Positions 2,575 to 61,336 of a stretch of DNA of 64,000 nucleotides are shown piece by piece. The DNA is from a virus. The DNA lies in the IMG/VR virus record IMGVR_UViG_3300024581_003939, positions 3,513 to 67,512 of that record; one strand, written 5' to 3'. The notes beneath the pieces were generated by a model. It was not told the DNA's origin, made no database searches, and saw only the letters and a program-made list of their open reading frames with translations. Made by a program: the position numbers and the translations under genes. The number at the start of each line of letters is the position of its first letter. Position 1 is the first letter of the stretch.

Positions 2575-3759
2575 TTATCCTGCTGGTACAACTGCATTAA
2601 ATGCATCAGCTATTTCTTGATTTGAAACATCATCTCGGAGCATACGCATTAAAAGAATCACGTCATCAGCATCCGGATTGTTATCTTTAAGATACTGAAT
2701 ATGTTCTGCTTTAAATTTTCCAACGCCTATATTTATCCCTTCAACACTCGTTTTAATCTGACGTATCCTTGTTAGTACTTCAGTCTGACCTGACTTATTA
2801 TAGATATTTAAATACTGACATCTTGAAACGTTATACTCCAGAGGCATCCCCTCTTCTTTGGGTGATAATGAACTTTCATCTGAGTCTGGTTCGCCTGTTA
2901 TACATCCGTGATACTTTTCTTTAATAACCGGTTTAAGATAATTTCTAATGTCTTGACTGCCTTCGTCTTGATTATCTGAATAATTTAAAAGCGGTATTTC
3001 GTTTTGGTTATCAGCTGTAATTGTTCCTGGGTAAACAATCTTATATCGCTCTAAAGCCCTGTTTGCTAAGTTTGTTATTAAGTCTTTTCCACCAGTTGAA
3101 AATTCATCGTCAAAAGCATGGCTTAATTCATGAAATATTGTCTCTCTTACAGCATTATCAAATGATCCCCAACCATCAACGTCATCGTTAGCGATAAGGC
3201 TCAATGCTGCTCTAAGTTTTTGTGCATATTCATTTTTCCCTAAGTGCTTAGAAAATGAGTCTGTATTAACGGAAACTTCCCCATTGAAAAAAGCACCTTT
3301 AACATCCAAACCCTGATTTTTGCTTTTTCTAAAAAACTCTCGCCACTCTTGATTGTTTGTATCCATGGAAAGTTTAATATCATCAAACTTTTCTTTCGTT
3401 GTTTTAATAATTTGAGGGATGTTGTTTAGATAGTAAGGATCATTTTGATCAGTTACATCTCTATATCTCTGCTCTCTTTCTTTCGGTACGATCAATTCAA
3501 GAATATCATTTAAGCCCTTTTCTGAATACGCCATGGAAGCTTTTTTAGAGAGTATACTCTTTACTTTTTCTCTTAATTTATTTGTCAGGTCGTTAGAATA
3601 TAATTTTCTTATAAAAGAATTCTTTGCATCTTCAAAGTTTTTATTTATTATTGATTCCATTTTAACAAAACTTTGGTCACTGCTATCTGTCTCAGAATTT
3701 TCTTCTTCATTGAGGTAAGATTCAATAATAATGTTCAATTGTCTTCTTGTCAGTCTCAT
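2575..3759 (-). CDS. putative zincin metallopeptidase with virion-type leader
   Basis: HELSH (HExxH) motif; N-terminus MRLTRRQLNIIIESYLNE. Confidence 0.55.
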   Translation of the reverse strand: MRLTRRQLNIIIESYLNEEENSETDSSDQSFVKMESIINKNFEDAKNSFIRKLYSNDLTNKLREKVKSILSKKASMAYSEKGLNDILELIVPKEREQRYRDVTDQNDPYYLNNIPQIIKTTKEKFDDIKLSMDTNNQEWREFFRKSKNQGLDVKGAFFNGEVSVNTDSFSKHLGKNEYAQKLRAALSLIANDDVDGWGSFDNAVRETIFHELSHAFDDEFSTGGKDLITNLANRALERYKIVYPGTITADNQNEIPLLNYSDNQDEGSQDIRNYLKPVIKEKYHGCITGEPDSDESSLSPKEEGMPLEYNVSRCQYLNIYNKSGQTEVLTRIRQIKTSVEGINIGVGKFKAEHIQYLKDNNPDADDVILLMRMLRDDVSNQEIADAFNAVVPAG

Positions 3760-3776
3760 GGTTATAACTATCTTTA

Positions 3777-4046
3777 CTATTTTCTTTTAACACTCTTTAG
3801 CTGCTTTTCATCATCACCACAATAGTCATGATGAATTGTCACAAATCTAAACTCTGACTGGTCAATAAGCTGATAATAATAAGAATTAGTGGGTTCGTGA
3901 ACGTGTGATGATCTTACTTCGGCAAATCTAATTTTATTGTTTCTATCTAGATAATAGCAAAAGTCGCCAGCTTGATACACGTCTGTTTCTTTTTCATCAC
4001 TTGCTTTTTCTTTTTTTAGTTTTTTTGTCTTTGTCTTTTTGGCCAA
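3777..4046 (-). CDS. hypothetical protein
   Basis: TTG start with AGGAG RBS; SH3-like YQAGDFCYY. Confidence 0.55.
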   Translation of the reverse strand: MAKKTKTKKLKKEKASDEKETDVYQAGDFCYYLDRNNKIRFAEVRSSHVHEPTNSYYYQLIDQSEFRFVTIHHDYCGDDEKQLKSVKRK

Positions 4047-4293
4047 CGGTCACTCCTTTTTTATTACTATACTGAAGTATTTCATAAATTACATAAAGTG
4101 ACACCCAGTTTATTCCGCCCTGAGAATTCTGTATTTTCATTGTCTTGTTGTCGACTTCTAAGACAATACCTATGATGTGGTCATTATCTAAACTAACTTT
4201 GATTAAATCACCAATGTTAACGCAAGCTTTTACCGAAGTATCTCTGCGTTTTATATTGATTAGATCTTCAATAGTCAACCTAGTATATGCCAA
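3997..4293 (-). CDS. hypothetical SH3-like protein
   Basis: VNIGDLIKV...IGIVLEV; basic tail. Confidence 0.55.
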   Translation of the reverse strand: MAYTRLTIEDLINIKRRDTSVKACVNIGDLIKVSLDNDHIIGIVLEVDNKTMKIQNSQGGINWVSLYVIYEILQYSNKKGVTVGQKDKDKKTKKRKSK

Positions 4294-4300
4294 AATTTCC

Positions 4301-4744
4301 TCATTTAATTTTCAATGCTCGTCTAATATCATCTACAGAAGCCGGTGATCTTTGTGTTTTCATTTTCTTTTTCATGTTGTCGATTGTCTGATCGATTGAT
4401 TTGCCTACTTGCGTCTTATCCAAGTCAATAATCTTTTTAAGCCCAGCAACGGAATCTTCTTTTGCACTAGTTATTCCAACAGCTGCAAGTGTAACGTAGT
4501 CCATTACAGTTTTGTTGCCAGGAGTTTCTCCGTCAATACTAAACTGAAGATCACCTACGTCGTCTTTGAAGAATTTAACTTCTTTTTGTTCACCGTCTAC
4601 TTCGATCACAAAGGGTTCAATATTGTCAAATTCATCTTTCCCGCTATCAGTAGCTTCATCTTCAGATTCGGTGTCAGCGTTTTCTTCTTCTTCAAAAATA
4701 ATCGATTCAATCAGGCTTTTGAGTTCTCGCTTAGTTATTTTCAT
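4301..4744 (-). CDS. hypothetical protein with virion-type leader
   Basis: MKITKRELKSLIESIIFE followed by an acidic stretch. Confidence 0.7.
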   Translation of the reverse strand: MKITKRELKSLIESIIFEEEENADTESEDEATDSGKDEFDNIEPFVIEVDGEQKEVKFFKDDVGDLQFSIDGETPGNKTVMDYVTLAAVGITSAKEDSVAGLKKIIDLDKTQVGKSIDQTIDNMKKKMKTQRSPASVDDIRRALKIK

Positions 4745-4774
4745 TGTTTTCCTCTATAAGTATAAATATCTTTT

Positions 4775-4810
4775 AAAAAATAAAAAAGCACCTCATTGGA
4801 GATGCTCTTT
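4775..4810 (-). terminator. intrinsic terminator after rpsU
   Basis: AGCATCTC-CAAT-GAGGTGCT stem followed by a T-run. Confidence 0.75.
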
Positions 4811-4827
4811 AGAATTCGAAGTAATTA

Positions 4828-5028
4828 TTAGCTATTGCGTGATCTCTTAGCATTTTTTCTTCTTCTTTTTTCAGCACGTGCTTTTTTCTTTTTCTTTTTA
4901 ACTGATGGTTTATCGTAATGCATACATTCTTTTGCACGACGTAATATTCCTTCTTTGTCTACTAGACGTTTAAATCTACGAATAATCTTTTCACCTGTTT
5001 CATTTTTTCTTGACTTTACTGTTGCCAT
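4828..5028 (-). CDS. rpsU: ribosomal protein bS21
   Basis: MATVKSRKNETGEKIIRRFKRLVDKEGILRRAKECMHYDKPS plus basic tail; ATG at 5028 with AGGAG (ORF-track start at 5070 is over-extended). Confidence 0.9.
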   Translation of the reverse strand: MATVKSRKNETGEKIIRRFKRLVDKEGILRRAKECMHYDKPSVKKKKKKARAEKRRRKNAKRSRNS

Positions 5029-5036
5029 TTTTTCTC

Positions 5037-5981
5037 CTATTGAATATATCCTGTACCAATTACTTCCCACCAGCTGTAGCTTTCAATTGTTCCACCAAAA
5101 TCAGCGTATTCTTTCTTTTCTATTCTGTGACGCATCATATGAATAGAGACTAGATTGCCACTCTGATACTGCTGAAAATAAGATCCAGGAATCATCATAT
5201 AACCTACATCTTCTGATTTACAAATAGTCGTACCGTAATAAGCACTTCCATCATAACTATAAACAGATATATGGATTGTGAAGAAGCTATTAGCATCACC
5301 ACTAGGGCCCCATGTAAAGACATTGTTTCCGTTTCTATTAATAGGCGCTTGAAAAGCGTAACTAGGGTCAACGTAAAGCATTTGATATGGTTCAATATAG
5401 TCAAAACCGCGCAATGTCTCTACAACGTTATCTGCTGTTTTATTTTGAACACTTAAGTTGTGTGACGTATTTCTTCTAAAACTACTTTCCTGTATATAAC
5501 TATTTTCATAAATTACGCCTGTTTGATCACTAGTTTTGTTTAGTTGAATGTTATCACCAAATGTATTTAAAAGGCTTACAGTCTGTCCCATATCCACGTT
5601 AGGTGCAGAAACTGATGACTCATAATAATCTCTGCAACCGTCAATTCTAGGTATCCAGCTTGTATGTTCGCCTGTTGATGCTTGATGGAATCTTACTTTT
5701 GCCGTTGTATTTATTTCTTGCTGCAAACCCATGCAGTAAGGACACGAAGCCTGCATCAGACCTATCTCAACGTAACCAATAGTTTTGCTAAGGTCTTGGG
5801 TTGAAGTATCGGACGTATTTGTATCTGTTTCTTCTGTTGTGTCATTTACACTATAACCCGTGTCAGTAAAAACTGTATCCGATGAAGAATCACCTCCTTC
5901 ACTTTCAATTGTTTTGGAAATATAGACGTCGCCACCGCATGCTATGATCGCTGCAGTTAGTACTGTTAAGATTGTTTTCAT
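5037..5981 (-). CDS. putative lipoprotein
   Basis: signal peptide MKTILTVLTAAIIA-C; Thr/Asp-rich linker; CxxC. Confidence 0.65.
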   Translation of the reverse strand: MKTILTVLTAAIIACGGDVYISKTIESEGGDSSSDTVFTDTGYSVNDTTEETDTNTSDTSTQDLSKTIGYVEIGLMQASCPYCMGLQQEINTTAKVRFHQASTGEHTSWIPRIDGCRDYYESSVSAPNVDMGQTVSLLNTFGDNIQLNKTSDQTGVIYENSYIQESSFRRNTSHNLSVQNKTADNVVETLRGFDYIEPYQMLYVDPSYAFQAPINRNGNNVFTWGPSGDANSFFTIHISVYSYDGSAYYGTTICKSEDVGYMMIPGSYFQQYQSGNLVSIHMMRHRIEKKEYADFGGTIESYSWWEVIGTGYIQ

Positions 5982-6110
5982 TTGCGTTCCTACCTTTTTG
6001 ATATTATATGCAAGTCTAGTCGATTGTTAATGTTACCTTCGCTGTATCGTTGTTTTATATTTATTAAGAAAACGGGTTATAATTTAAAAAATTACAAGGA
6101 GTATACAGTT

Positions 6111-6797
6111 ATGGAAAAAATTTATCTCTATGATGACAATATTGGATCTGTTGAATATGTACAACACATGGGAGACGATCTTACGATTGTTAATTCAGCA
6201 CGTGTAAGCTTTGGAAAGCAAAAGGAGGATCTAGATGAAAGAGATGAAAAGCTCATTAAATACCTCATCAAACATCAACACACCAGTACGCTGGAACATA
6301 ATGTTGTTACTTTTAGGTTTTGTGTTCCTCTTTTCGTTCGTAGTCAGCACCATCGCCATCGGACATGGTCCTACAATGAAATATCTCGTAGGTATACTGA
6401 TGTGAACTTACAGTTCTATTCGCCCAAAGAATTTAGGACTCAGCACAAGAGCAATCGTCAAGCAAGTAATACAGACAACCTCATCAATCCAACTGTTGCA
6501 CCGTTGTTTCTTGACACGTACTCTACTGCATCTCAAGCTATATCTGAGTGGCATACGCAGTCTCTAGATCTATTTGACAAACTTATTGAATCTGGCGTAT
6601 GCAGAGAACAAGCAAGAGGTGTTTTACCCCAGAATCTCTACACCGAGTATTACGGAACTACAAACCTCAACAACTTAATTAAGTTTATCAAGCTTAGAAC
6701 TCACGATGGTGCACAACAAGAAATTCGTGTAGTCGCTGAAGCGTGCAAAAAAATAGCAACCGACTTGTGGCCAGTTGCTATGAAACACCTAGAATAG
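6111..6797 (+). CDS. thyX: FAD-dependent thymidylate synthase
   Basis: RHRTWSYNEISRRY signature; ATG at 6111 with AAGGAG and upstream TATAAT. Confidence 0.95.
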   Translation: MEKIYLYDDNIGSVEYVQHMGDDLTIVNSARVSFGKQKEDLDERDEKLIKYLIKHQHTSTLEHNVVTFRFCVPLFVRSQHHRHRTWSYNEISRRYTDVNLQFYSPKEFRTQHKSNRQASNTDNLINPTVAPLFLDTYSTASQAISEWHTQSLDLFDKLIESGVCREQARGVLPQNLYTEYYGTTNLNNLIKFIKLRTHDGAQQEIRVVAEACKKIATDLWPVAMKHLE

Positions 6798-6802
6798 AAA
6801 GT

Positions 6803-8086: not shown

Positions 8087-8102
8087 AATTATTTTCTCCT
8101 AT

Positions 8103-8914: not shown

Positions 8915-8915
8915 T

Positions 8916-10673: not shown

Positions 10674-10702
10674 GTATATATTATTTATCTTGTTTTTACA
10701 CT
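10674..10702 (-). promoter_or_regulatory. promoter GTGTAA-N17-TATACT
   Basis: read directly upstream of 9837..10631. Confidence 0.55.
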
Positions 10703-12327
10703 TTTGACTTTTTATAAGCAGTCACAAACAAGTCTTTCAATATTGAGCTATACAAACTATTTGACTCGTTTAGATCGTCAGTTTCAGCTTCTAAACTATC
10801 GTCTATTTTTAAGTCTTCTTCAGAAAGACCCCAATTAACTTGCGTTCTTACCATTACCTTCGCGTTTCCAACTCTAAATGTTACTGTATCTTCAAAGTCC
10901 TCAGCGTTACCTTTGGCAAATTGCATAGAAGTTTTAGCCACAAAGGCTTCTATAATATCTTCAGAATTATTTCTTATTGTTGACTCTACCCATTTAAAAT
11001 CTGGAGTTTGCTCTGTATTTAAATTACCAAATTTTTGAACATACTGATGAAGAATTTTATTGTCATAGTCACTAGATACGTCAGGATCAGATGTGTCACT
11101 TAATTGTGGGCTTGCTGTAACATCGCTAATTAGCAAGACAAATCTTAACAGCATAGAGTTAACTACTGCTATTTGTGTCTTGCTAGTATCTCCTCTATTA
11201 GATATAAAAACATAGTACTTGTTAACATTGTCTTCAGGAAATGATGCGTGAAGCCCTCTTTCGATTGTGTTTGGGCTTTTCGAAGATTTACATTCTATTT
11301 TGATATTATCGTTCATAACAATATCAGTTCCAGTTGAATCGATATGACTAGTTGTCTTATTAGAGAGTATATGAAAAAAATGTGCTACGGCAATCTCTAC
11401 GTCATCTCCTGTCGGTAAGATACAATTTTCCATAATGTAATGATATACTTCACCTGGGTTGCTCATATTTAATGCTTTATAAGCTCTCGTCACAACAGAA
11501 TTTTCAACTAGTGTAATCCCTTTAGACTTATCTGCGTTATACGCATACAATGAATGACTCTCTTTAGCTTGGAGACTTTTGGTGTTTCCAAATACATTTG
11601 CTCCCCAAGGCCACTTCGTCTTAAGTTCTTGAGCGATACGTTCCTTATCTAGAGATTCGTTATCAGCTATGTAGTTTTGTAATGCATCCGGTATTATACT
11701 AGTAGGCTGCAATAGTTGATCTTCAACATATTCTTGATAGGCATCTTCCAACGGGTTTTTTTCAGGGCGCCCTAAGATATCCCTAATTTTTTGATCAAGT
11801 TTTTTCTGACCTTCACTAGTTGAAGCAGGGATAAATCCGGATTGAATTGCAAGATATATATCTTTCATGACATCATCAGCATAAAAGTCTTCTGACTTTA
11901 TATGCAAAAATCTTATTTTATTAAAAATGTTTTTAGCAATATCACCCTTTGTTTTGCTAGTCCTAGGCGATCTAGTAGGATCTAGACTCGGCTCCATACG
12001 AGGATGTGTACCGAGCCTAGGATAATCTACAGTTGCAGGTACTTTAATTTTTCTTCTTTTGTTTTTAGGGTCTTGAACTTTATCTGTTGCTTGAGCTGGG
12101 TATTGTCCCATTTCTATTTGAAACTCTCCAAGACCGGACAACTGACTCGGGTCTTGCATGAGCTTGTATACTTCCCAAGCATTTCTAAGATGTTCGTCAG
12201 AAAACCATGGCTCATTTGCAAACTCAGTACCGCTTTTATTAGTTGGATCCTCTCCACCGGGTACAGCTTCCTGGATCATATTTTCCATAATCTTCTTAAG
12301 TCTAGCTTCTGATATAATTGTTTTCAT
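10696..12327 (-). CDS. protein with PD-(D/E)xK nuclease-like domain and virion-type leader
   Basis: GTDIVMNDNIKIECKSS; N-terminus MKTIISEARLKKIMENMIQE. Confidence 0.5.
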   Translation of the reverse strand: MKTIISEARLKKIMENMIQEAVPGGEDPTNKSGTEFANEPWFSDEHLRNAWEVYKLMQDPSQLSGLGEFQIEMGQYPAQATDKVQDPKNKRRKIKVPATVDYPRLGTHPRMEPSLDPTRSPRTSKTKGDIAKNIFNKIRFLHIKSEDFYADDVMKDIYLAIQSGFIPASTSEGQKKLDQKIRDILGRPEKNPLEDAYQEYVEDQLLQPTSIIPDALQNYIADNESLDKERIAQELKTKWPWGANVFGNTKSLQAKESHSLYAYNADKSKGITLVENSVVTRAYKALNMSNPGEVYHYIMENCILPTGDDVEIAVAHFFHILSNKTTSHIDSTGTDIVMNDNIKIECKSSKSPNTIERGLHASFPEDNVNKYYVFISNRGDTSKTQIAVVNSMLLRFVLLISDVTASPQLSDTSDPDVSSDYDNKILHQYVQKFGNLNTEQTPDFKWVESTIRNNSEDIIEAFVAKTSMQFAKGNAEDFEDTVTFRVGNAKVMVRTQVNWGLSEEDLKIDDSLEAETDDLNESNSLYSSILKDLFVTAYKKSKV

Positions 12328-13432: not shown

Positions 13433-14290
13433 ATGTTAATAAAAAAGAGAAACCTAGAAAGATTAATCAAAGACTTTTTGAGAGAAAACGAAGATAAAAA
13501 CAAAGAAAGACATACCGGGAATACCGTCTTTTATTGGAATAACACAGATAACCAAATTGACTATGCTTTTGATTGGAAAATCTTGGCTGATAAAAAAGTC
13601 GTACCTAGTTCTGATGCTGACATGATTGTTGGTAAGTGTGAACAAAATCATTGTTCACAATGGGTTTCAGATTCTTTTGGAAGAGAAATAAGAATCGGAA
13701 ATGCATGGCATGCTGATCGATTAATATCTGACGTAGGAATGCCAATTATCAAATACGCTTCTCATCATGATCCGGAATACGTAAATGATAATTTCTTGAA
13801 GCATGCTAGTTGGTGCTTTACAAGAATAAATGAAAATCCTAATAAGCAAACTATGTTAGAAAAAACAAAAGAATTGTCGAAAAGCTTAATACCTGATCAA
13901 AGCAAATTTTCTAATCTTGCATTGGGAGATATCGTAGGATTGTATTTTGAATCATCTTCAAACTTTTCAAAAGCATTCTTTGAGTCTGCTACAGGTTATA
14001 CAAGAATGGGGTCGGGAGACATGGAAACTCCGGCTGAATATTTCGTAACTGAAAGTGGTGAACCGTGGAAACAAGAAATGCTAGGAGAGAATATTCAATT
14101 CAAACCTAGCAGCAAACTTACCAATTCTAAAATAGGCTTCCCTATTAATACACACATTGGTGTAGTTGGGGCAATACACAATGGTATTCCAATTATTTAC
14201 CACAATGTTCATAGAAACGTTCATGCGGTTGGACTTAATGCCATTGATCAATCAGAGATTAAAATATTCTGGTCAGCAAAAAAGTCTTAA
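13433..14290 (+). CDS. putative CHAP/NlpC-P60-like Cys-His hydrolase with virion-type leader
   Basis: HCSQWVSD, GNAWH, THIGVV, IIYHN; leader MLIKKRNLERLIKDFLRE. Confidence 0.55.
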   Translation: MLIKKRNLERLIKDFLRENEDKNKERHTGNTVFYWNNTDNQIDYAFDWKILADKKVVPSSDADMIVGKCEQNHCSQWVSDSFGREIRIGNAWHADRLISDVGMPIIKYASHHDPEYVNDNFLKHASWCFTRINENPNKQTMLEKTKELSKSLIPDQSKFSNLALGDIVGLYFESSSNFSKAFFESATGYTRMGSGDMETPAEYFVTESGEPWKQEMLGENIQFKPSSKLTNSKIGFPINTHIGVVGAIHNGIPIIYHNVHRNVHAVGLNAIDQSEIKIFWSAKKS

Positions 14291-19298: not shown

Positions 19299-19847
19299 CT
19301 ATAGGAAATTAGCAATTGCGGGAATAGGATTCCAAAAAACATCTTCAATATTTTGAATATTATTCTTGCATATGTACTCTGCAAGTATAGTTAATAATAA
19401 TTCAAAAAATTCATTAAAGTCTTCAGATATTAAATCTTGCGTAAAGACTGGGTGCATAGAAGTTATATAACTAATATATTTATCATATTCAGTTGCGATA
19501 TTAGAGAACTGATTTCTGTCGCCACTATTGATTATTTTTTGATTTTCTATTTCTTCTTCTTGGGACAGCGGGAAATTCATCTCTACCCAAGACGAAAAAG
19601 AAGAAGCAACTTGATTATAGATTCTGTCGTAATGAGGATTACCAAAAGAGCAGCGACCGGGATTGTTTTTGTTAGGGTTCCAGCCACCTCCGCCGTCTCC
19701 GCCACCACCTCTTCGAGGTGGATCATTAGGCGGGATATGACCTGTCCCTCCACCTCCAGAAAAAACAAAATCGTCTATATTTAAGTCAAAAGTGTCCTTG
19801 AACTCTTTCAGTAATATTTTTTTTAGTTTTCGTCTTGATAATTTCAT
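19299..19847 (-). CDS. hypothetical protein with virion-type leader and Gly/Pro linker
   Basis: MKLSRRKLKKILLKE; GGGGTGHIPPNDPPRRGGGG. Confidence 0.65.
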   Translation of the reverse strand: MKLSRRKLKKILLKEFKDTFDLNIDDFVFSGGGGTGHIPPNDPPRRGGGGDGGGGWNPNKNNPGRCSFGNPHYDRIYNQVASSFSSWVEMNFPLSQEEEIENQKIINSGDRNQFSNIATEYDKYISYITSMHPVFTQDLISEDFNEFFELLLTILAEYICKNNIQNIEDVFWNPIPAIANFL

Positions 19848-19901: not shown

Positions 19902-22193
19902 CTAATAGTCTTCTTTTTCTATGCCGAGTTCTTGTAAGATATCTTCGCCCAATGTCCATCTTGGTGGAACTGAAAAATATGCTCTATCTTCTATTTCACT
20001 ATAGACTCTTTTAGCCACCAAATTCTTTTCATCTTCTGGAATTGAGATCGTATATTGATTATCAGGAATTTTTGGGCTTTCTAAGTCTATATATTGTCTT
20101 AGCGGTCTGTAAAGATCAACTAAGTATTGATCATCTGAATACCTTCTATTTAGCAAAAACCCTACGTAACCCATGCACATATTATTTTTAAAGTGGTTTG
20201 CCATTTTTTCTGATATGAAAGGGCTTTGTGAAAGTTTACTAATCAAGGTTTGAAAAACTGAGTTTTTATTGTTTCTCAAATAATTGTTCTTCCATGTGCC
20301 AGCTAACCACTCTAGATCCATTTCTTTAATATAAACGCCTATCATGGCGTCGTTCTTTCCTTTAACTCCCTTAAGAAAACTATTGAATTGTTCCCAGTTC
20401 ATTTGATAAAACTCTGGAAATACTGAAGTAAAAGTCTCTTCTACGTCCTGAACTAGCTTTGGATGAAAGCCTACATGATTAGGATCTCTAGACCCATATC
20501 CGTTAGTTAATTCTTTCTGAACAATTGACAAAGCTATTCCGTCTTTTTGATCTAAGACCGGGATAAGATCTATATTTTCAAAATCAGTTAACGTAAATTG
20601 ATCTGCTCCTTCTTCCATTAAATATCTGAAAGTTTTTAAAACATGCTCAAACCTGGAAGAAACCTCTCTTTCATAAAACTTTTCTTTTAAGTCATCTGAA
20701 GCAGCGCTAAAGTGATCTTTTGGAGAATTTGGAAAGCCGTTATCTAATGATCTTTGTATACCCTCTGGTGATAGAAGTCGACTTTGCAATTCGTGAATTT
20801 TCTGAGTTACTATCGGGTTTAAAGGAATTCTTCTACCATGAGATAATGAAGTTTTTAGGATTCTATTCATTCTAACATCAGTATCGATAACTGTGCCCGG
20901 TCTCATTTGACCGGTCTGGACTAGTCTCTCATCAAGTAACTCATTATATAAATCGAAAAACTTGTAAAATAAATCTTCGCTCATAAGATAACCTTTAAAA
21001 ATTATCACATCAAAGATCAATAAGTCACTAGCAAACATTGAACCACCCATGTTACCGTCAAATATTGCTCTAGTATCTGTTTTTTTTGTTGAAAACTCAT
21101 TGTATATTTTTTCCAATACACTGCGAGTTATAAACTCTACTTTTGGATTGTCGGAATTTGCGCCTCTAATAGTGTCATAAAAAACTCCAGGGTCACTAAA
21201 TAAAATAAATTTCACGACGTCAGGAGACGCACCCTCTAAATTTTTACTTACTTGTTTTATATAGTCACTTTTCGCATCTTTTTCATAATCCTTTATGACG
21301 CTTTTTAGATATAACAAATCTGTTCTTGACCTCTTTAAAGATTCTTTGGCGGGATGATTTGATCCAATTACTTGAGCTTCAGCTGTTAAAGTATTTAGTA
21401 TCTGGTCATAATACTGACCAAACCCACTGTCAGTTCTTAATATTTCTTCTGTCAAACCCTTGTTTGCCGCGTCAACAGATAATCCTCCTTCTATTCCTTC
21501 TAATTGAGGAGAACCGTTAACAAAACCCACACAAATTCGAGAATCATTGTTGTTAAGACAAGCTTCTTGTACAGCTGCATATGCATCATCTGGAGCCCTA
21601 TTATAATCCATTACATAAAAAAGAATTATATCAGAGTCTTCTCTACCTACGTAACTTATGAACATGTTTTGACCAGACCTCTTTGTTGTACACCATGTAG
21701 TTTCAAGTCCGGTGCGATCACATGCGATAGATCCCTGTATAGTCTTAGGCATTAAAATTGTCCATGGGCCTACTGTACCTATAGTGTCTACATGCTCTGG
21801 ATCGTTTATGGGATCTACAGCAGTATTTGATTCTTTTTCTTTTCTACTTTTAATTAGATTGTTTGCTTGATCTACTACGCTCTTGAGGCTTCCTGATGTT
21901 GGGTATGTTTTGACGCTTAAGTTTGTTTCAAATCCGTTGCCTTTGATAATAGACTGAACTTGTGGATCGAAAAAATCTTTTACATAAGATGCCAGATCAG
22001 AAATAGGTTCTGTGCCTCTTGTTTTTTGTATCCATGATAATTGACTAGTGTCTCTGAGACCCTCATTATATGCTGCAAGCAATTCGGGTCGATCTGCTTC
22101 CGGTTGATTATTGATCCAATTTCTTGTTTGTCTATTTTCTAAAAGCAAGTTCTCAAGCAAGATTAATCGCAGTTGTTTTCTTGTAATTTTCAT
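19902..22193 (-). CDS. WCT-motif family protein, paralog A
   Basis: likely start MKITRKQLRLILLENLLLE at 22193; TTWCTTKRSGQNMFISY. Confidence 0.75.
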   Translation of the reverse strand: MKITRKQLRLILLENLLLENRQTRNWINNQPEADRPELLAAYNEGLRDTSQLSWIQKTRGTEPISDLASYVKDFFDPQVQSIIKGNGFETNLSVKTYPTSGSLKSVVDQANNLIKSRKEKESNTAVDPINDPEHVDTIGTVGPWTILMPKTIQGSIACDRTGLETTWCTTKRSGQNMFISYVGREDSDIILFYVMDYNRAPDDAYAAVQEACLNNNDSRICVGFVNGSPQLEGIEGGLSVDAANKGLTEEILRTDSGFGQYYDQILNTLTAEAQVIGSNHPAKESLKRSRTDLLYLKSVIKDYEKDAKSDYIKQVSKNLEGASPDVVKFILFSDPGVFYDTIRGANSDNPKVEFITRSVLEKIYNEFSTKKTDTRAIFDGNMGGSMFASDLLIFDVIIFKGYLMSEDLFYKFFDLYNELLDERLVQTGQMRPGTVIDTDVRMNRILKTSLSHGRRIPLNPIVTQKIHELQSRLLSPEGIQRSLDNGFPNSPKDHFSAASDDLKEKFYEREVSSRFEHVLKTFRYLMEEGADQFTLTDFENIDLIPVLDQKDGIALSIVQKELTNGYGSRDPNHVGFHPKLVQDVEETFTSVFPEFYQMNWEQFNSFLKGVKGKNDAMIGVYIKEMDLEWLAGTWKNNYLRNNKNSVFQTLISKLSQSPFISEKMANHFKNNMCMGYVGFLLNRRYSDDQYLVDLYRPLRQYIDLESPKIPDNQYTISIPEDEKNLVAKRVYSEIEDRAYFSVPPRWTLGEDILQELGIEKEDY

Positions 22194-43750: not shown

Positions 43751-43754
43751 ATGC

Positions 43755-44024: not shown

Positions 44025-44966
44025 TTATTGAATTTGTTCTATGGACAAGTAAGGTATGCCATATTTTTGGCTAACAGTTTCGATTGCGTTATTGAGCGCA
44101 ATTGAATGTTCATCTTGCCTTGTTTTTAAGTCTTCAACATCGATAAAGGCATCAATTTGCCAGTTATCAATAATGAACTCGTTCCAATCACCTTGTCTCC
44201 ACATGAAGTTGTGGAAAAGCTTTTTACGCCCGGGATCATTAATTCTCATATAACTTTCTTCATCAAGAATGATATTGTTAGTTATTTTTTCAAGCCATGT
44301 TCTTAGCCCACCTAAAATAAAAGATAAAGAAAAGCCTCCTTTTCTTTTTATATTTTCGATAGGATCAACATATTCCGGAAACTTAGGAACGCCTGAGGCG
44401 GCATATTTTTCTTCGTCTTCAGCATTCGGCTTTCTCCCAGAGAAAAGATTGTCATTTGCTGCCAGCGTCGTGTATCCTGACATCTTAACAGCAACTTTAT
44501 ATCTTGCTTGTTGATTTTTTCCATACCATGCTTGCTTCGCCAATTCAACATCTTTTATGTTATTTCTAAATTCTTCAGGAAGATAACCTACAGTTGAAAT
44601 TTCATTTTTTTTATTTGAATTAACTAAAGCTTCTAGCTCTGCCAATGGATCTTTTCTAGTATCTAGTGGCGTAAAATGAACTTTAATTACGCTATCTATA
44701 AAAGCTCTGTCAACATGCGCAGACCACGCTTGTTTAACTATGCTTGCAACTCCTCGTGTCATACTTCCAAAAAGCTGAACCAAGAAAGATTCACCGCCTT
44801 CTTTGTAGTACTGCTTAAGCCTATCTCTTAAGTCGTCTTTAAAATCATCAACGCGTTGGTTGCCTGTTCTTAGAAATCTTTGTGTTCCAAAAACTTCGTT
44901 TAACTCGCCATCTTGCTTAAGATAGTTTTCTATAATTGTTTTTAAATTTCTCTTAGATATCTTCAT
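44025..44966 (-). CDS. hypothetical protein with virion-type leader
   Basis: MKISKRNLKTIIENYLKQDGELNE. Confidence 0.7.
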   Translation of the reverse strand: MKISKRNLKTIIENYLKQDGELNEVFGTQRFLRTGNQRVDDFKDDLRDRLKQYYKEGGESFLVQLFGSMTRGVASIVKQAWSAHVDRAFIDSVIKVHFTPLDTRKDPLAELEALVNSNKKNEISTVGYLPEEFRNNIKDVELAKQAWYGKNQQARYKVAVKMSGYTTLAANDNLFSGRKPNAEDEEKYAASGVPKFPEYVDPIENIKRKGGFSLSFILGGLRTWLEKITNNIILDEESYMRINDPGRKKLFHNFMWRQGDWNEFIIDNWQIDAFIDVEDLKTRQDEHSIALNNAIETVSQKYGIPYLSIEQIQ

Positions 44967-46862: not shown

Positions 46863-47453
46863 TTAGTCTCTCATATAATTATGGTGTAATTGACATCTTG
46901 GCTCGTAAAGTTCAGCCCCTCCTACTTGGATTTGATCTAATCGATTATCAGATTTAAAACTTTCTACGTGTTTTACAGAACTTTTTTTACAGGTGTAGCC
47001 GGCATCTTTTTGACAGACACTGCAAACCGCTGTACACTTTTCAATTTTTGTACAATAAGGCATTAGATTTTTTACTTCTTCAAACGCTTCCCCTGTAAAA
47101 GACAAATCAATTGAAGCGACAACGACATTATAGCCTTTTTTAAAAAGCTTGATGCATGCCGCGGCACCACCCTCAATTAGAAATAACTCATCGATTATTA
47201 CAGTATCGATATTGATGTCTGTTTCTAGATCAACTATCTTATTGATAATCTCATCACCTGTTGAGACTAGGTGTGCAGGAAGCTTGTTAAAGTTATGTGT
47301 TACAATCTCTCCGACATTTGTGTATCTGTCATCCATTCTTGACTTAAAAGAAATGATATTTTGTTTTTGATATTGTCTTTTGTCTGCTTCCATCAATAGG
47401 CGGGTTGTTTTAGAACTAAACATAGGCCCGGTATATAAAATAAGTTCAGTCAT
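46863..47453 (-). CDS. tdk: thymidine kinase
   Basis: GPMFSSKT, IIDE, CSVC...YEPRC. Confidence 0.92.
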   Translation of the reverse strand: MTELILYTGPMFSSKTTRLLMEADKRQYQKQNIISFKSRMDDRYTNVGEIVTHNFNKLPAHLVSTGDEIINKIVDLETDINIDTVIIDELFLIEGGAAACIKLFKKGYNVVVASIDLSFTGEAFEEVKNLMPYCTKIEKCTAVCSVCQKDAGYTCKKSSVKHVESFKSDNRLDQIQVGGAELYEPRCQLHHNYMRD

Positions 47454-48451
47454 TTAAGCCCCCACCATTTATATGTTTTTTCCATTCCTTCCCAAAATGT
47501 TACTACTGGCTTATAACCAAAATCATTAAAGGCTTTGCTGCAGTCTGCCAATGTATGCTTAACATCACCCGGCCGCTCTGGCGCATTTTTGATCTTAACT
47601 TTATCGCCAAATTCTTCTTTTAGGTGGTCTAGAATCTGATTATTTGTTACGCTACTACCGCATGCAATATTATAGCATTCTCCTAAGAACTTTTTATTAG
47701 AATTTGCAGCTAAAATATTTGCTGAAACTACATTGTCTATATGACACATATCTCTTGACTGTTCCCCATCGCCATCAGATCTACACTCTAGACCGTTTGT
47801 AATTGCATGACACCATGCTGACACTGCTGTTGAATAAGGACTGTCTCCATATTGTCCTTGCCCAAAAACATTAAAGTATCTTAAACAGACAATATCTAAA
47901 TCATAGAGGCCTGCACACACCTTTGCAAAATCCTCAATAGCTGATTTTTGCCAAGCATAGGGAGAGAGAGGTGACTTATTTTGACGTTCAGTTGTTGGAA
48001 GGGATCCAGCGTCTCCATAGACTGAAGAAGAAGATGCCCAGACAATTCTGTCAACAGAACCACGTGCTGCCTCAAAAAGTCTAACAGTTTTTGAAATATT
48101 GATATCAGTTGTATGCCATGGCTCCTCAACAGAATAGCTTACGCGAGGTAAGGCAGCCTGATGAAAGACGACGTCATAATTTCCTTGATATACAGCGTTC
48201 AAGACATTGTCATCAGCAAAATCATCTTGAATTACTAACACTTCATCTTGATGCCTTTCGTGATCTTGCATTTTATAAGCTGTATAAAATGTCCCGTTGG
48301 CTAAAACTCTAAATTTTAAATCATTTAAAAGCTCTAAATGACCGTTAGACATGTCATCAACAATATCTACTTGCCACCCTTGTTTTACCAGTTCTTTTGC
48401 GAGATTGCTTCCAATAAATCCACAACCGCCTGTTACTAATGCTTTTTTCAT
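47450..48451 (-). CDS. NAD-dependent nucleotide-sugar epimerase/dehydratase (extended SDR)
   Basis: TGGCGFIG, HQAA, SSSSVYG, YAWQK, RYFNVFG. Confidence 0.92.
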   Translation of the reverse strand: MKKALVTGGCGFIGSNLAKELVKQGWQVDIVDDMSNGHLELLNDLKFRVLANGTFYTAYKMQDHERHQDEVLVIQDDFADDNVLNAVYQGNYDVVFHQAALPRVSYSVEEPWHTTDINISKTVRLFEAARGSVDRIVWASSSSVYGDAGSLPTTERQNKSPLSPYAWQKSAIEDFAKVCAGLYDLDIVCLRYFNVFGQGQYGDSPYSTAVSAWCHAITNGLECRSDGDGEQSRDMCHIDNVVSANILAANSNKKFLGECYNIACGSSVTNNQILDHLKEEFGDKVKIKNAPERPGDVKHTLADCSKAFNDFGYKPVVTFWEGMEKTYKWWGLK

Positions 48452-50172: not shown

Positions 50173-50393
50173 TTTTTCTTTTTTCTTCCTCGTTTTTTAG
50201 GTGGGGGTTTAACCTCTTTTTTCTCAGGTATCTTTATATGATTCTGATGTATCGTTAGTTGGAGCACGAAGTCTTTTCCTCCCTTTTCAGTTGATTTAAA
50301 AGTTACCCAACCTTCTGAGTCGCAAGAAACGACTTCGTGCTTTTTAAATCTCTTGCCAATTTTAACAGAGATCTTGTCACCCTTAGTAATCAT
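50169..50393 (-). CDS. small basic hypothetical protein
   Basis: MITKGDKIS...; AT-hook-like PKKRGRK tail. Confidence 0.55.
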   Translation of the reverse strand: MITKGDKISVKIGKRFKKHEVVSCDSEGWVTFKSTEKGGKDFVLQLTIHQNHIKIPEKKEVKPPPKKRGRKKKK

Positions 50394-51360
50394 TTTTATT
50401 TTCAAGTGTTTTTAAGAATGAAACAATACTATCTACTTCTTTCTGGCTTAAATCTTTTCCAAGCTGAATTGATGCCATAATTCGAACTGCATCTTCAATT
50501 GTTTCTACACTTCCGTCGTGAAAATATGGACCGGTATTTGTGATGTTTCGTAAAGAAGGAACCTTAAATACTTCTTTGTCTGCTGGATTACCTGTTACGT
50601 TAAATCTACCTAAGTCAATATGACCACCATCAGTTCGATAAGGTTTTAAAACACCTAGTTTTTGAAAGCTATTACCTCCAAATAGCGCGCCGTTGTGACA
50701 CGAACCACATCCAGTGGAGACAAATTTCTCATATCCTTCAACTTCTTCTTTTGTCAGATACGTTTTCCCATTTAGCCATGCATCAAATCGATCAGAGGTT
50801 ACCAAAGTTCTTTCAAATGCAGCAATTGCGTTCGCAATATTATCAAATGTAATAGGGTTTTCTTGATCAGGAAACGCTTTTTCAAATAAAGGTGGGTAAG
50901 ATTCGATACTTGAAATGGATGATTCTGCATCTTCTTTTGTTTTTGTACCCATTTCTCCTGCAGCAAGAATTGGCCCTTTTGCTTGTTCTTCTAGAGTAGG
51001 TGCACGGCCGTCCCAAAACTGTGCTACATGATATCCTGAATTAAAGGTTGAAGGTGCATTCCGTTCTACAGGTTTACCATATGCCCCTATCGAAACTTTA
51101 AGTGGTTCAGCACCGTGATGACTTAATAAGTGACATGATTCACACGACTGAGTTTTATTTCCACTCAAAGCTTTTTCTGAGTAAAGCAAACGTCCTAGGT
51201 CTACCATCTCCTTAGTATCTTTTTTAATTTTTAAATCGTCAATCGTTCCAAACATCGACTGAGCTTGAGCTTTAATCTCAATTTCTTTGTTCTCGTCTTC
51301 TGACGTAGTTTTTAGTTCTGGCTGCTGATTACATGCCATCATTAATAACGCGATATACAT
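50383..51360 (-). CDS. di-haem cytochrome c peroxidase (CcpA/MauG family), lipoprotein
   Basis: two CxxCH motifs (CESCH, CGSCH), RNAPST, QFWDGRA, VPSLRN, PYFHDG; lipobox LLMMA-C. Confidence 0.92.
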   Translation of the reverse strand: MYIALLMMACNQQPELKTTSEDENKEIEIKAQAQSMFGTIDDLKIKKDTKEMVDLGRLLYSEKALSGNKTQSCESCHLLSHHGAEPLKVSIGAYGKPVERNAPSTFNSGYHVAQFWDGRAPTLEEQAKGPILAAGEMGTKTKEDAESSISSIESYPPLFEKAFPDQENPITFDNIANAIAAFERTLVTSDRFDAWLNGKTYLTKEEVEGYEKFVSTGCGSCHNGALFGGNSFQKLGVLKPYRTDGGHIDLGRFNVTGNPADKEVFKVPSLRNITNTGPYFHDGSVETIEDAVRIMASIQLGKDLSQKEVDSIVSFLKTLENKNDY

Positions 51361-53277: not shown

Positions 53278-53281
53278 TAGT

Positions 53282-53326: not shown

Positions 53327-53335
53327 TGTTATGTA

Positions 53336-55756
53336 TTAATATTCTAAGAATTTATTAAACTTGTTTGGCCAAGGAACACCGTTCTGTTGAGAATAACTTT
53401 GCCATGTCGCCTTTCCTTTGAGGACATAGCTCGCCATGTTATAGAGTGTAAGTATCCATTCATTATAGCTATCTTCTCCGTCTTCTGGTTCGTCTTCATA
53501 AGTCTGCATATATGCAATAATTTCTGATAAATAGTTGTCAATATTTACAGGTTTACCGTAAGACTTGTCAAAGAGTTTTGCAAAATTAGATTCTGTTCCA
53601 CCATGAATATCTTCTTCTAACAGCTGCCCGATCTCCATATACTCGTCAGAGAAATACTCGCTCATGTCACTGACAATTGTCGGGTGGACAAACAAAGATA
53701 CGTATAAAGCTAGCCTTTCTGTTTTGGACTGCTGCTCAGTCAGGTTTTCTGTGTTCGTCTCTCCGTGCAGCCTATCTTTCTGGAGTTTTAAAATAGTTGG
53801 AGCAAATAAACTAGGTTCAGTTCTAAAAGAAAGTGTCTTTATGCCTTGCTTGTTTTCATAGTTATTAGAATTAAAAAGTACTTCTCTGTGAATTCCTCTT
53901 TCATAAGTCTTGATCATATAAACAGGGTCTAGTTTAAGATTAGACATGAAGAAATGTCCTTTTGCTACATACGCTAAAGTGTCAATCAAAGTATCAAACG
54001 ATTCTTTAGAAAGAGACTGAAAAAAGCTATTATCAGATAATCTAATTAGACTGTTTGCTGCATATGAAACCTCTGATATGCTTTCACCCGCACCATTGGT
54101 TGAAGTTTCAAGATCTCCGGAAGAATTTGTCGGAGTCATTATAAAATTGTCACTAATTGCTTCATCAACAATTTCTTTTGGGCATTCTGGGTGTGCAATT
54201 AAATTAGGTATATTTCTTCCAGTGCGGTCTGTGTATCTATCATTGCTAAATTTTTCATAAAGTTTAGTTATGCTTTCTGGGTTTAGCATGTCTTTCTTTT
54301 TAACAATAGAGTGAAGTAAAATAGCTCTTTGCGGATCTCTAGAGTGATAATCTGTTGCATACGTATAATTATCATTGACTACATCATCAACCATTTCACT
54401 AAAGAGTTCAGGAGAGATTGGTCTTACAGCACTGTTGGATCTTAACATGTTCCACATGTAAAACCCAGATGCTTTACCTCCAGAAGACTGCTTTTCATAA
54501 TGATAAAGATCAGTTATTAGACCGGAAGGAAGTGGAAGATTGTATGACTTAATTAATTCGTCTATATCTCCTGTTTGGATAGCAGCTTGAGTTGCTCTTG
54601 CTGTCTTCCCAAATCTTATACCTACCCCTCTAATTCTTTTATGAGGATCTTTGATCATTTCAATAATAATGTCTTCGTTTTGTGTATGAACTGCAATTTC
54701 TCTGGCTTCTTGAACAAAAAGTGCAATATCATTTTCAGACTGGTGTGCTTCTCTCATTGCCTGATATTGCTCAAGACTGATCGATTTATAATATTCCTTT
54801 GGGTTAATTTCCTTTCTTTCTGGATTGTTTTTAACATCATTTTCAATCAAACTAAAGAGTCGCTGACCAATAATGTTTATTACACTCTCTTTAGAAATAG
54901 GTTGATTATTTCCGTCAACAGTTGCGTGACTACCGTCTTTTAAGGCAACATAGTCTCCTTTCTTTATAAAACTTAAACAAAATTTTCTTTCTGGGGCATT
55001 TGGGTCGTAGTCATTAACACGTGTCAAGTAATACATGTGCAAGTTCATTTTTTGATGGTAGTTAAGAAACATGTTTCCAGCACCATCAATTGTGGTGCAC
55101 CAACTCATCTCACCTAATTGTGCTTTTTCTTCAGGCGAGTTTGGATTAAGATACTCATAATTAGGACCCATTCTTCCTAAAGCTATTGATCCCTTGTAAG
55201 TTTTAGGATAAGCAACAAAGTAAGGATTGCCAGATGATGGCATTGCAACCACTTCGAATTCTGAAGTTCGCCCATTGATTCCATCTGTAATTACACGATT
55301 AAGAATATCTGATCTTTTTCCTACCCCTGATCCACTTTCTATGTATTGCATTGCTTCGTCATATGTTAGTGTTGTGTTGTCAGGCTGACTGACGTCAATT
55401 TTTGGAAGGATGTCGATCATTTGACCACCGGTACCTCTCATAGCCCTAGGCGGTAAATCACCTCTGCGCGCGTTGCTAACAATTTTGTTGAGTATTTCTT
55501 CGCCACCTTGTGATATGTCACCTAGACTATGTCCTTGATTTGCACTAAGCGTGTTAAAGAGTATTTTTCCCATAATAGGGTCGTTAAAAGGGTATACCCA
55601 GTCTTTGTCAAAGACGTATCTATTGAAATCGCTCTGTGTGATCTGACCTTTTTGTATAAAATGATTAAAGGCTTTTTTCTTTATTTCAAAGATAAGCTCA
55701 GGTCCTCTTAAATAATTTTCAATTACTAACTTTAATTGTCTTTTTGTAATTTTCAT
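53336..55756 (-). CDS. WCT-motif family protein, paralog C
   Basis: MKITKRQLKLVIENYL; MSWCTTIDGAGNMFLNY. Confidence 0.75.
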   Translation of the reverse strand: MKITKRQLKLVIENYLRGPELIFEIKKKAFNHFIQKGQITQSDFNRYVFDKDWVYPFNDPIMGKILFNTLSANQGHSLGDISQGGEEILNKIVSNARRGDLPPRAMRGTGGQMIDILPKIDVSQPDNTTLTYDEAMQYIESGSGVGKRSDILNRVITDGINGRTSEFEVVAMPSSGNPYFVAYPKTYKGSIALGRMGPNYEYLNPNSPEEKAQLGEMSWCTTIDGAGNMFLNYHQKMNLHMYYLTRVNDYDPNAPERKFCLSFIKKGDYVALKDGSHATVDGNNQPISKESVINIIGQRLFSLIENDVKNNPERKEINPKEYYKSISLEQYQAMREAHQSENDIALFVQEAREIAVHTQNEDIIIEMIKDPHKRIRGVGIRFGKTARATQAAIQTGDIDELIKSYNLPLPSGLITDLYHYEKQSSGGKASGFYMWNMLRSNSAVRPISPELFSEMVDDVVNDNYTYATDYHSRDPQRAILLHSIVKKKDMLNPESITKLYEKFSNDRYTDRTGRNIPNLIAHPECPKEIVDEAISDNFIMTPTNSSGDLETSTNGAGESISEVSYAANSLIRLSDNSFFQSLSKESFDTLIDTLAYVAKGHFFMSNLKLDPVYMIKTYERGIHREVLFNSNNYENKQGIKTLSFRTEPSLFAPTILKLQKDRLHGETNTENLTEQQSKTERLALYVSLFVHPTIVSDMSEYFSDEYMEIGQLLEEDIHGGTESNFAKLFDKSYGKPVNIDNYLSEIIAYMQTYEDEPEDGEDSYNEWILTLYNMASYVLKGKATWQSYSQQNGVPWPNKFNKFLEY

Positions 55757-55873
55757 AATTTCCTTCATCTTTAAGCTGTTTTAAACACGGGTAGATCATA
55801 ACCACGAGTGTAGTCTTCACCTTGCACGGCCACTTTGTAAGCTATTTGTTACTAACAAATATAACATATATAT

Positions 55874-59392: not shown

Positions 59393-59397
59393 ATAAG

Positions 59398-59452
59398 AAA
59401 ACTCCTGGTATTATTTTTGTTATAGTATACCACAAGGAGTTTAAGATTACAT
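59398..59452 (-). promoter_or_regulatory. dnaE promoter ATGTAA-N17-TATACT with RBS-covering hairpin
   Basis: -35 at 59447-59452, -10 at 59424-59429; arms AAACTCCT-TGT-GGTAT and ATACC-AGGAGTTT. Confidence 0.72.
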
Positions 59453-59527
59453 TTTTAACTACTTATTAAACCTTGTTATCAGAAGCACTACCGTAAATAA
59501 ATTTGCCCTTATATAGTTTTCGCTTCC

Positions 59528-61336
59528 TTAAAACAGAAATTTCAAAGTGTATTTTTTTCTTTCACTTAAGTTTCTTTTTTCTAAATTATCTCTGGCACTA
59601 TCTCTTACTTGTTCGTCTCTATCGTTTAGTAATTCTTTTAAAGTTTGAACATTTGTATTTTGATTTTCTGCAACATTTTGCCTTACCCATTTATCACTGT
59701 CTCCTGACATTATTTGCAAAGTTTCAGATCGGGTTGACGGGTTTGAAGCGACAAATGATCTAACTCTTTTGCTGGTATCGTATGATAGCTTGTCTATGAC
59801 ATCTGGAGTTGCTGATTCATTCATTGCTATAAATACCCTTACCCATTCAACAGTATCGTCAGTCATTTTAAGCAAAGTCGTCGGGCCTGTTGATTCATTT
59901 TGAGCAATTGCTGACCTTACACTCCTATCAGCATCATCTGATAAGATATCTAACAATCTGGAGTCTACTGGATCTTTTTGTGCTATAGACTGTCTTACGC
60001 CACTTGATCGATCGCTTGTTAAGTTTTTTAATATCTCAAAAGGCGTCAATTCATTATACACGACTGATCTTCTTACATGTTCTGAAGTGTCTTTTGATAA
60101 CTTTTCTAGAAGTTGTAAATTTTCTAAATTTCTTGCAACTACTGATCTTACAGTTTCATCTTTATCATTTGATAGTCTTTCTAGTATTTCTGACTTAGAT
60201 GGCATGGATCTGTGTCCAATATTTTTTACTGCATTTAATCTTACAACAGGTGACGGATCATTTGAAAACTTGTTTAGTAAAACCTCATCATCAGTTCTTA
60301 ATGCAACATTTTGTCTTACGCTTTCGCTCTTGTCGTTTGACAAATAAGCTAATACTTCCGGTGAAACATTTCCTTGATCGAGAACCGAACTTATAAAATC
60401 ACTTTTTTCACTTTCACCGTAATCTTTGATGACAGATATTAAAACTTCTAAGTTTTCTGCGGACTTTTCTAATATTTCAATTGCTGGACTTATGCCGTTG
60501 TACTTTTGAACAGTTGAATTAATTGCGCTCATAATATCGTTATAGTACTGTCCTAGCGCTTTTGAAAAAGATGCTTGTGTCAGCCCTTTGTTTGATGCAT
60601 CGACAGATATACCTCCGTCTTGACCATGAAGCTCAATTTGACCCTCCACGAAACCTAAAGACATTCTAGAACAATTATTAGCCATGCAAGGATTTTCTTG
60701 ATATATCTGTGGGTCGTCAGGCTTTCTATTATAGTCCATTATGTAAAATAGCATCATGGACTCTCCGTGTGCACCGGCATAAGAATAAAATAAGTTTTGC
60801 CCATTTCTTTTTGTTGTGCACCAAGTTGTGGACTGAGGGTTGTCAAAGTCACAAGAAACTGACCCTCTGACTGTCTTAGGCAGAATAACGGTCCACGGGC
60901 CAAATTTGCCAACAATTTCTAGATCAGTACCGTTCTCTAACGAAACCATGGTTTTTCTGTCGTGCGAGCTTAAATCAACATTGACACCCTGTATAAAGTT
61001 GTCTAGCTCTTGAATTGAACTAAAGGACGAGAGGTTTAAGTAAGATAATATGCTAGGGTCATTAAGCCTCTTTGACTTAACCCTAACTTTTTGTTTAAAT
61101 GCTTCAGTTTTAAATTCTAAAACTGACTGAATTATGTGAAATAGGTCAAAGTTGTCTCTAATTTTTTGAATCCAGGAGAAGTCTTGAGTTTTAAGACCGC
61201 TGGCTTCGGCATTCAAGTATATTCTCTTATCTTCTTCAGAAATGTTTAAATTGTTAATATAATCTCTATCTCTTCTTCCTTCAGAAATAAGATAATTTTC
61301 TATTAATGTGTTCAATTGTTTTTTTGATATTTTCAC
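59528..61336 (-). CDS. WCT-motif family protein, paralog D, with LRV/HEAT-like repeats
   Basis: MKISKKQLNTLIENYLISE; TTWCTTKRNGQNLFYSY; C-terminal repeats. Confidence 0.78.
   Translation of the reverse strand: MKISKKQLNTLIENYLISEGRRDRDYINNLNISEEDKRIYLNAEASGLKTQDFSWIQKIRDNFDLFHIIQSVLEFKTEAFKQKVRVKSKRLNDPSILSYLNLSSFSSIQELDNFIQGVNVDLSSHDRKTMVSLENGTDLEIVGKFGPWTVILPKTVRGSVSCDFDNPQSTTWCTTKRNGQNLFYSYAGAHGESMMLFYIMDYNRKPDDPQIYQENPCMANNCSRMSLGFVEGQIELHGQDGGISVDASNKGLTQASFSKALGQYYNDIMSAINSTVQKYNGISPAIEILEKSAENLEVLISVIKDYGESEKSDFISSVLDQGNVSPEVLAYLSNDKSESVRQNVALRTDDEVLLNKFSNDPSPVVRLNAVKNIGHRSMPSKSEILERLSNDKDETVRSVVARNLENLQLLEKLSKDTSEHVRRSVVYNELTPFEILKNLTSDRSSGVRQSIAQKDPVDSRLLDILSDDADRSVRSAIAQNESTGPTTLLKMTDDTVEWVRVFIAMNESATPDVIDKLSYDTSKRVRSFVASNPSTRSETLQIMSGDSDKWVRQNVAENQNTNVQTLKELLNDRDEQVRDSARDNLEKRNLSERKKYTLKFLF
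59583..60363 (-). repeat. about ten 24-26 aa LRV/HEAT-like repeats (protein level)
   Basis: repeat unit LxxLSxDxxxxVRxxVAxN. Confidence 0.8.

Follow-up and report, generated by a model that had tools for sequence, protein, structure and literature searches.

The diverse internal proteins of bacteriophage T4 share only a capsid-targeting sequence (CTS), which leads them into the scaffolding core (PMC3012670). The CTS has the sequence MKTYQEFIAE (PMC8442874), and its 10 residues suffice, with residues 4 and 7 serving targeting and residues 8 and 10 serving cleavage by gp21, which cuts after L/I-X-E (PMC9026906). It is carried by IPI, IPII, IPIII and Alt and removed by gp21; in IPIII, a change of Glu to Asp abolishes the cleavage. 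Encapsulin cargo-loading peptides are also short and portable, and they bring diverse enzymes into a shell of the HK97 fold; they differ in being usually C-terminal, in binding the shell protein directly and in remaining uncleaved, and no encapsulin is involved in the case described here. In the giant phages phiKZ, 201phi2-1 and SPN3US, many head-internal proteins are cut after Glu by a diverged gp21 homologue, and their propeptides have redundant cleavage sites (PMC9026906, PMC10052503). These cuts follow S/A-x-E, and one conserved N-terminal leader has not been reported. Here, we analysed a leader peptide shared by many proteins of an uncultured marine giant phage, represented by the IMG/VR virus record IMGVR_UViG_3300024581_003939 (72,198 bases, here G000; CheckV completeness 22%). 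The window, that is, the whole 64,000-nucleotide stretch to which unprefixed coordinates refer, corresponds to G000 positions 3513-67512.

The 72-kb contig encodes 14 tagged open reading frames (ORFs), 13 with the leader proper and a looser one at 10696-12327. The analyses establish a portable tag that is exclusive to N-termini, ends in a cleavage-type motif, is widely distributed and belongs to a lineage with T4-type head machinery. We interpret it as a portable N-terminal capsid-targeting tag, by analogy a longer, non-homologous counterpart of the T4 CTS, and assign this reading a probability of roughly 0.65. The first-pass annotation of the window had proposed a capsid-targeting propeptide loading a cargo of enzymes. 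Each computational corollary of the propeptide that was tested fits, whereas the 'enzyme cargo' labels were mostly not confirmed.

Translation confirmed the ten core leaders that had been listed in the window, each of which opens at a start codon, ATG or, at 61336, GTG. At 22193 and 55756 the longest ORF extends further upstream, yet the orthologues start at the leader Met. Three extra members lie on the same contig beyond the window, with starts at G000 67825 (weaker), 68745 and 69497. A hidden Markov model (HMM) trained on 12 leaders was run over the contig in all six frames. The 12 training ORFs scored 15.7-28.3 bits and the next real ORF start 5.8 bits (G000 67825); model position 1 always fell on a start codon, and no internal site in a real gene exceeded 10 bits, so that this profile scan returned start-codon matches only. 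For an unbiased test, the N-termini of all 99 contig ORFs were clustered without gaps and with no motif assumed, using residue shuffles as the null. This yielded 67 pairs scoring at least 30 (shuffles: mean 0.98, maximum 4), and these pairs form a single component of 14 members, the 13 leader ORFs and 10696-12327. Among the looser versions proposed earlier, the one at 12327 thus joins the family, while those at 37045 and 41092 are recovered by neither the HMM nor the clustering and were dropped. On this contig, as in T4, a short shared tag is therefore found at the extreme N-terminus. Leader codons vary at synonymous sites and the DNA upstream is unconserved, which indicates that selection acts on the leader peptide.

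Together with related viral contigs, the contig provided a pool of 101 distinct leader ORFs. Their consensus is M-K-I-T-K/R-R-Q-L-R/K-x-I/L-I-x-E-E, with conservation decaying after approximately residue 16. In 99 of them, a [LIVMF]-x-E motif ends at residue 12-15, directly followed by a drop in conservation. The tag therefore ends in the gp21 cleavage motif L/I-x-E as defined for T4 (PMC9026906). A second [LIVMF]-x-E is present at residue 16-26 in 68/101 leader ORFs, with peaks at 18/19 and 21/22; within this contig, 11/13 tagged proteins have such a second site, versus 19/85 untagged proteins and 19% of internal windows. The hydrophobic moment of the leader is 0.47 versus 0.26, and its net charge is +3.9 over residues 1-12 and about -3 over residues 13-40. 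These values agree with the amphipathic basic helix described earlier. In the AlphaFold model of the 602-amino-acid (aa) tagged protein (predicted local distance difference test, pLDDT, 85), the leader lies at the start of a predicted helix spanning residues 5-28. When residues 1-45 of one tagged protein were co-folded with a gp22-like scaffold protein encoded by a related contig (L135), the score was 0.00, which weighs neither way.

Given its N-terminal position and the positive charge at its start, the leader might instead direct export or membrane insertion by the secretion machinery of the host, all the more as the contig also encodes true lipoproteins. We regard this as very improbable. 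The positional composition of the leader is not that of a Sec, Tat or lipoprotein signal, as basic and hydrophobic residues alternate and are followed by Glu. It has no hydrophobic core, twin-arginine motif context or lipobox, an acidic linker comes next, and the real lipoproteins of the contig have ordinary signal peptides of quite different look.

The tagged ORFs of the window are as follows, with the analyses that recovered them.

2575-3759, minus strand: tagged ORF, 394 aa; leader codons at 3703-3759; an acidic linker that varies in length separates the leader from a domain with an invariant HExxH; HMM and clustering.
4301-4744, minus strand: tagged ORF, 147 aa; leader at 4688-4744, then a long acidic linker; no Pfam or PHROG family; HMM and clustering.
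10696-12327, minus strand: looser leader, 543 aa; helix offset by about 4 residues, ending in I-Q-E followed by Ala; found by clustering but not by the HMM.
13433-14290, plus strand (the sole member on this strand): tagged ORF, 285 aa; leader at 13433-13489; HMM (18.8 bits) and clustering.
19299-19847, minus strand: tagged ORF, 182 aa; leader at 19791-19847; HMM (15.7 bits) and clustering.
19902-22193, minus strand: tagged ORF, 763 aa when counted from the leader Met at 22193; one of the WCT-domain paralogues; HMM; its orthologues P0020-P0027 start at the leader.
22855-24570, minus strand: tagged ORF, 571 aa; WCT-domain paralogue; leader at 24514-24570; HMM (27.0 bits).
24935-25390, minus strand: tagged ORF, 151 aa; leader ending in I-A-E, like the T4 CTS; HMM (26.1 bits).
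44025-44966, minus strand: tagged ORF, 313 aa; leader at 44910-44966; HMM (28.3 bits) and clustering.
53336-55756, minus strand: tagged ORF, 806 aa when counted from the Met at 55756; one of the WCT-domain paralogues; HMM; leader kept in the 800-aa orthologue of L013/L021.
59528-61336, minus strand: tagged ORF, 602 aa, starting with GTG; the leader is followed by the WCT domain and this by HEAT/LRV repeats; HMM; AlphaFold model (pLDDT 85).
63024-64000, minus strand: C-terminal part of a weaker tagged ORF, 429 aa; start outside the window at the equivalent of 64313 (G000 67825); HMM (5.8 bits) and clustering.

The tagged proteins had been described as unrelated. BLAST searches with the leaders removed identified one four-member paralogue group and one short match, the remaining proteins being mutually dissimilar. 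The paralogues are the proteins of 763, 571, 806 and 602 aa, which have in common a domain of ~300 aa with a WCT motif, and the description thus holds for the others only. As four of the tagged proteins are paralogues, the cargo amounts to about ten distinct families. Overall, the tag is found on clearly unrelated folds, in proteins of 42 to 806 aa. Pfam and PHROGs searches with ten tagged proteins yielded essentially nothing beyond the HEAT/LRV repeats of the 602-aa protein, and neither database has a family that covers the leader itself. PHROGs likewise had no match for ten candidate structural proteins of the window that lack the tag. Among the domain labels proposed initially, the WCT family and the HExxH motif of the 394-aa protein were retained, while CHAP and nuclease found no Pfam or PHROG match. 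The putative 'zincin' label of the 394-aa protein is backed solely by its invariant HExxH; the model of this protein is poor (pLDDT 40), and structural atlas leads to zincin families are weak (TM-score at most 0.3 by query). For the WCT-domain model (pLDDT 85), Foldseek searches of the PDB gave nothing at E<=0.001, and the best VIA-align Z-score was 5.6, with no convincing match.

Comparisons of homologues indicate that the tag is portable, as had been proposed, since WCT-domain proteins occur both with and without the leader. The Glu just before the WCT domain is invariant in 23 sequences, and the distant members P0030, P0031 and P0033, which have another leader or none, still harbour h-x-E followed by G/A at the domain boundary. 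In the HExxH family, both the leader and the domain (H210-E211-x-x-H214 invariant) are conserved, with a 20-aa indel in the linker. Because the boundary Glu is kept without the leader and the linker accommodates an indel, the leader is a separable module ahead of a cleavage-type site. P0030 combines the WCT-domain homologue with a protein kinase domain (PF00069) in place of the HEAT/LRV repeats; the WCT domain thus serves as a shared N-terminal unit in front of various C-terminal parts.

The distribution of the leader extends far beyond this contig. Two degenerate leader DNA patterns searched in IMG/VR matched 21 and 83 stretches, many of them from contigs of 130-370 kb. Tandem arrays of 9-18 consecutive small leader genes are found in relatives (18 ORFs in 10 kb and 9 in 3 kb in G026; 14 ORFs in 6 kb in L023), with at least 27 tagged ORFs in one relative. 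A leader profile of 68 sequences and 32 columns was then compared with 1.84 billion cluster representatives from public metagenomes, collecting 5,511 protein clusters (50% identity) at E<=0.001 and 144 at 1e-10. In the literature, the leader strings appear in no paper, and we found no paper linking capsid targeting with marine or jumbo phages.

Many database proteins (P0038-P0187) and some ORFs (L010, L023) contain two or three leaders in one frame. The internal copies are mostly Met-initiated, and preceding residues such as E-G-K resemble an in-frame ribosome-binding site. Judging from their sequences, these multi-leader ORFs may have arisen by fusion of tandem cargo genes or may encode precursors resembling polyproteins.

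Such arrays, the frequency of in-frame double-leader ORFs and the A-rich first codons could also be explained if the shared N-terminus were a relic of common descent, in a tandem-expanded family that diverged except at its start, the latter being kept for instance for translation initiation or stability. We consider this explanation improbable. Synonymous sites are free, while the amphipathic heptad-like pattern and the terminal Glu persist over 16 residues, the tagged folds are clearly unrelated over their whole size range, and the WCT domain is also found behind other N-termini. Furthermore, retention of the tag by ~5,500 clusters (50% identity) requires strong selection on the peptide.

The capsid-targeting interpretation calls for a T4-type head, and the genes for it were found in relatives. 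One of these, G016, has a DnaE 91% identical to that of our contig, extends 46 kb further and harbours tail sheath, tube and baseplate-hub genes. Two more contigs, G025 and L135, encode proteins 100% identical to those of the G016 strain and add a head module. Its genes run in the order portal, a 287-aa protein, a Peptidase_S77 protein of the T4 gp21 family (PF03420, 99.6 bits), two proteins of 182 and 79 aa, an acidic scaffold resembling gp22, the Gp23 capsid protein (PF07068, 259 bits), more leader ORFs and tail genes. In L135, the protease gene lies at 2095-2697, that of the 182-aa core-like protein at 2691-3239 and that of the scaffold at 4715-6133. In L135, leader genes are thus located between the capsid and tail genes. 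In addition, the product of the gene right after the protease gene (182 aa) and that of the adjoining 79-aa gene have leader-like helices at their N-termini. The closest cultured relatives of the protease are those of Flavobacterium phage immuto (44% identity), of T4-like cyanophages and of pelagiphage HTVC008M. Based on the sister-strain head module and on these proteases, the window is assigned by sequence to a giant, distant T4-like myovirus whose head genes are located off this fragment.

Alignment of the proteases revealed a near-invariant [IL]-x-E followed by S/A at approximately residue 23, as well as L-[RK]-E ahead of the C-terminal tail. These positions correspond to the known or presumed self-processing sites of T4 gp21 (PMC9026906). 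As the protease of this lineage keeps the motif at both ends, it has probably retained the L/I-x-E specificity.

We then compared the occurrences of the tag and of the gp21-family (S77) protease. Among sheath-related records, S77 was found in 8/12, which are all the long ones, including G026 and G027. It was present in 5/21 records with the first leader pattern (2/3 of the complete ones), and in 14/18 large records with the second pattern, which were chosen by leader DNA pattern alone (11/11 at >=50% completeness). All records at least 50% complete that have several leader genes encode the protease. The tag thus occurs only with the protease, with a lone 45-kb exception, yet it is not found in every protease-bearing phage: it is absent from T4, from G028 and from immuto, which has no leader.

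We also considered that the cargo leader might mirror the N-terminus of the post-protease gene in every lineage. This was not supported, as G028 keeps that gene and has no cargo leader family. In G028 (L139-L154, ~34-103 kb), the same clustering identified instead ~22 small proteins of 58-149 aa with CxxC...CxxC N-termini.

A number of observations weigh against the capsid-targeting interpretation. The protease and capsid genes are absent from the 72-kb contig itself, which is 22% complete, and are linked to it via sister-strain contigs. The counts of co-occurrence come without a leader-negative control set, and the one exception, a 45-kb 'complete' record with a single leader-like ORF, has no T4-type capsid gene. 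The complete, 305-kb relative G028 encodes the protease and, by N-terminal clustering, has no such leader family, and the tag is thus not required by the head type. A 32-residue leader query had no match in 50,697 deposited phage records, and no cultured phage was found to carry the tag. The 68-sequence leader profile found nothing in the T4 genome at E<=10, and the resemblance to the T4 CTS consists of the Met-Lys start and the I-x-E end only. In the AlphaFold model, the leader is predicted to run continuously into the first helix of the WCT domain. Finally, the tagged genes sit among replication and nucleotide genes, and the late-promoter core TATAAATA (<=1 mismatch) is not enriched upstream of them. 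This canonical T4 core is present ahead of the capsid gene of L135 (L135:6120-6170) and of a 382-aa structural gene (upstream of L135:15234); an expectation-maximization motif search upstream of structural genes gave no clean consensus.

Several of these features would fit our main alternative, namely that the helix is a docking or oligomerization module that gathers proteins at an intracellular site, such as the inner membrane, a phage-made complex or the phage chaperonin, and does not lead to packaging. The amphipathic and basic character of the helix (see above), its predicted continuation into the first domain helix, the location of the tagged genes amid replication and nucleotide-metabolism genes with no canonical late promoter, and the presence of a GroEL gene on the contig are all consistent with docking. 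Nevertheless, this explanation does not account for the gp21 cleavage motif at the end of the conserved block, for the confinement of the tag to protease-bearing genomes or for the similar N-termini encoded by the head-module genes beside the protease gene. We thus regard it as unlikely, albeit the strongest competitor of capsid targeting. The first-pass annotation had also reasoned that a capsid tag should not be equally common on early or replication enzymes, and indeed no recognizable enzyme is tagged. The recognizable proteins of the window, all of them leader-less, include DnaE, DNA ligase, a helicase, a 5'-3' exonuclease (FEN), GroEL, a sigma-70 factor, superoxide dismutase, a di-haem peroxidase and sugar epimerases.

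If the tag targets the capsid, by analogy with the T4 CTS its helix would bind the scaffolding core of the assembling prohead, and the tagged proteins would be built into the head. The gp21-family prohead protease would then cleave behind the Glu at residue 13/14 with which [I/L]-x-E ends, often with a second cut at such a site around residue 18-22, freeing the cargo inside the capsid. The cargo would enter the next host cell along with the DNA.

Like the T4 CTS, the leader is a short N-terminal peptide of unrelated proteins that starts with Met-Lys and ends with I/L-x-Glu. On its sister-strain contigs, the lineage encodes a protease of the gp21 family, a scaffold resembling gp22 and a capsid protein of the gp23 type, as does T4, and in both cases the hypervariable cargo genes lie away from the head operon, either scattered or in clusters (PMC3012670, PMC9026906). 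In contrast with the CTS, the leader has 13-16 conserved residues rather than 10, is strongly basic and is frequently followed by a second cleavage-type site. The scale is also far larger, with 14 tagged ORFs in 72 kb, 27 or more in one relative, thousands of metagenomic clusters and cargo of up to 806 aa. This larger scale of use and the lack of detectable homology set the leader apart from the sequence family of the T4 CTS. Relative to the phiKZ group, the protease belongs clearly to Pfam S77, the motif reads I/L-x-E, and a single conserved tag is reused.

The window harbours other genes worth describing. Among their products are a di-haem cytochrome c peroxidase (50383-51360; PF03150, 173 bits), whose signal resembles that of a lipoprotein, and a Fe/Mn superoxide dismutase with an N-terminal extension (43070-43777), which together suggest an oxidative-stress module. 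The sigma-70-type factor (30128-30904) matches regions 1.2, 2 and 3, and just the first 18 positions of region 4. A full-length GroEL-type chaperonin (31862-33475; PF00118, 228 bits) is encoded by this phage with a T4-type capsid protein. Two adjoining small paralogues, both opening with MKPGDLV, are found at 895-1274, and the contig has two NAD-dependent epimerase paralogues (47450-48451 and 61957-62949).

More broadly, the leader might define a very large, unnamed cargo-loading system of marine T4-like giant phages, in which dozens of proteins per genome would be packed in the head via one tag and injected as first-wave effectors. The cargo would comprise a putative metalloprotease, repeat proteins and kinase fusions, with the genes shuffled in tandem arrays and even as in-frame multi-tag polyproteins cleavable by the head protease. 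We propose this wider scenario tentatively, at somewhat less than even odds. Should the tag act as the T4 CTS does, thousands of candidate injected proteins of uncultured ocean phages would be flagged from sequence by a motif of 16 residues, and these would include anti-defence factors, proteases and enzymes of host takeover. A defined functional class would thereby emerge from a large part of the viral 'dark matter'. The leader would also add a second peptide, unrelated to the CTS, for directing foreign proteins into T4-type capsids, and the T4 internal-protein strategy would have been scaled up many-fold in giant phages.

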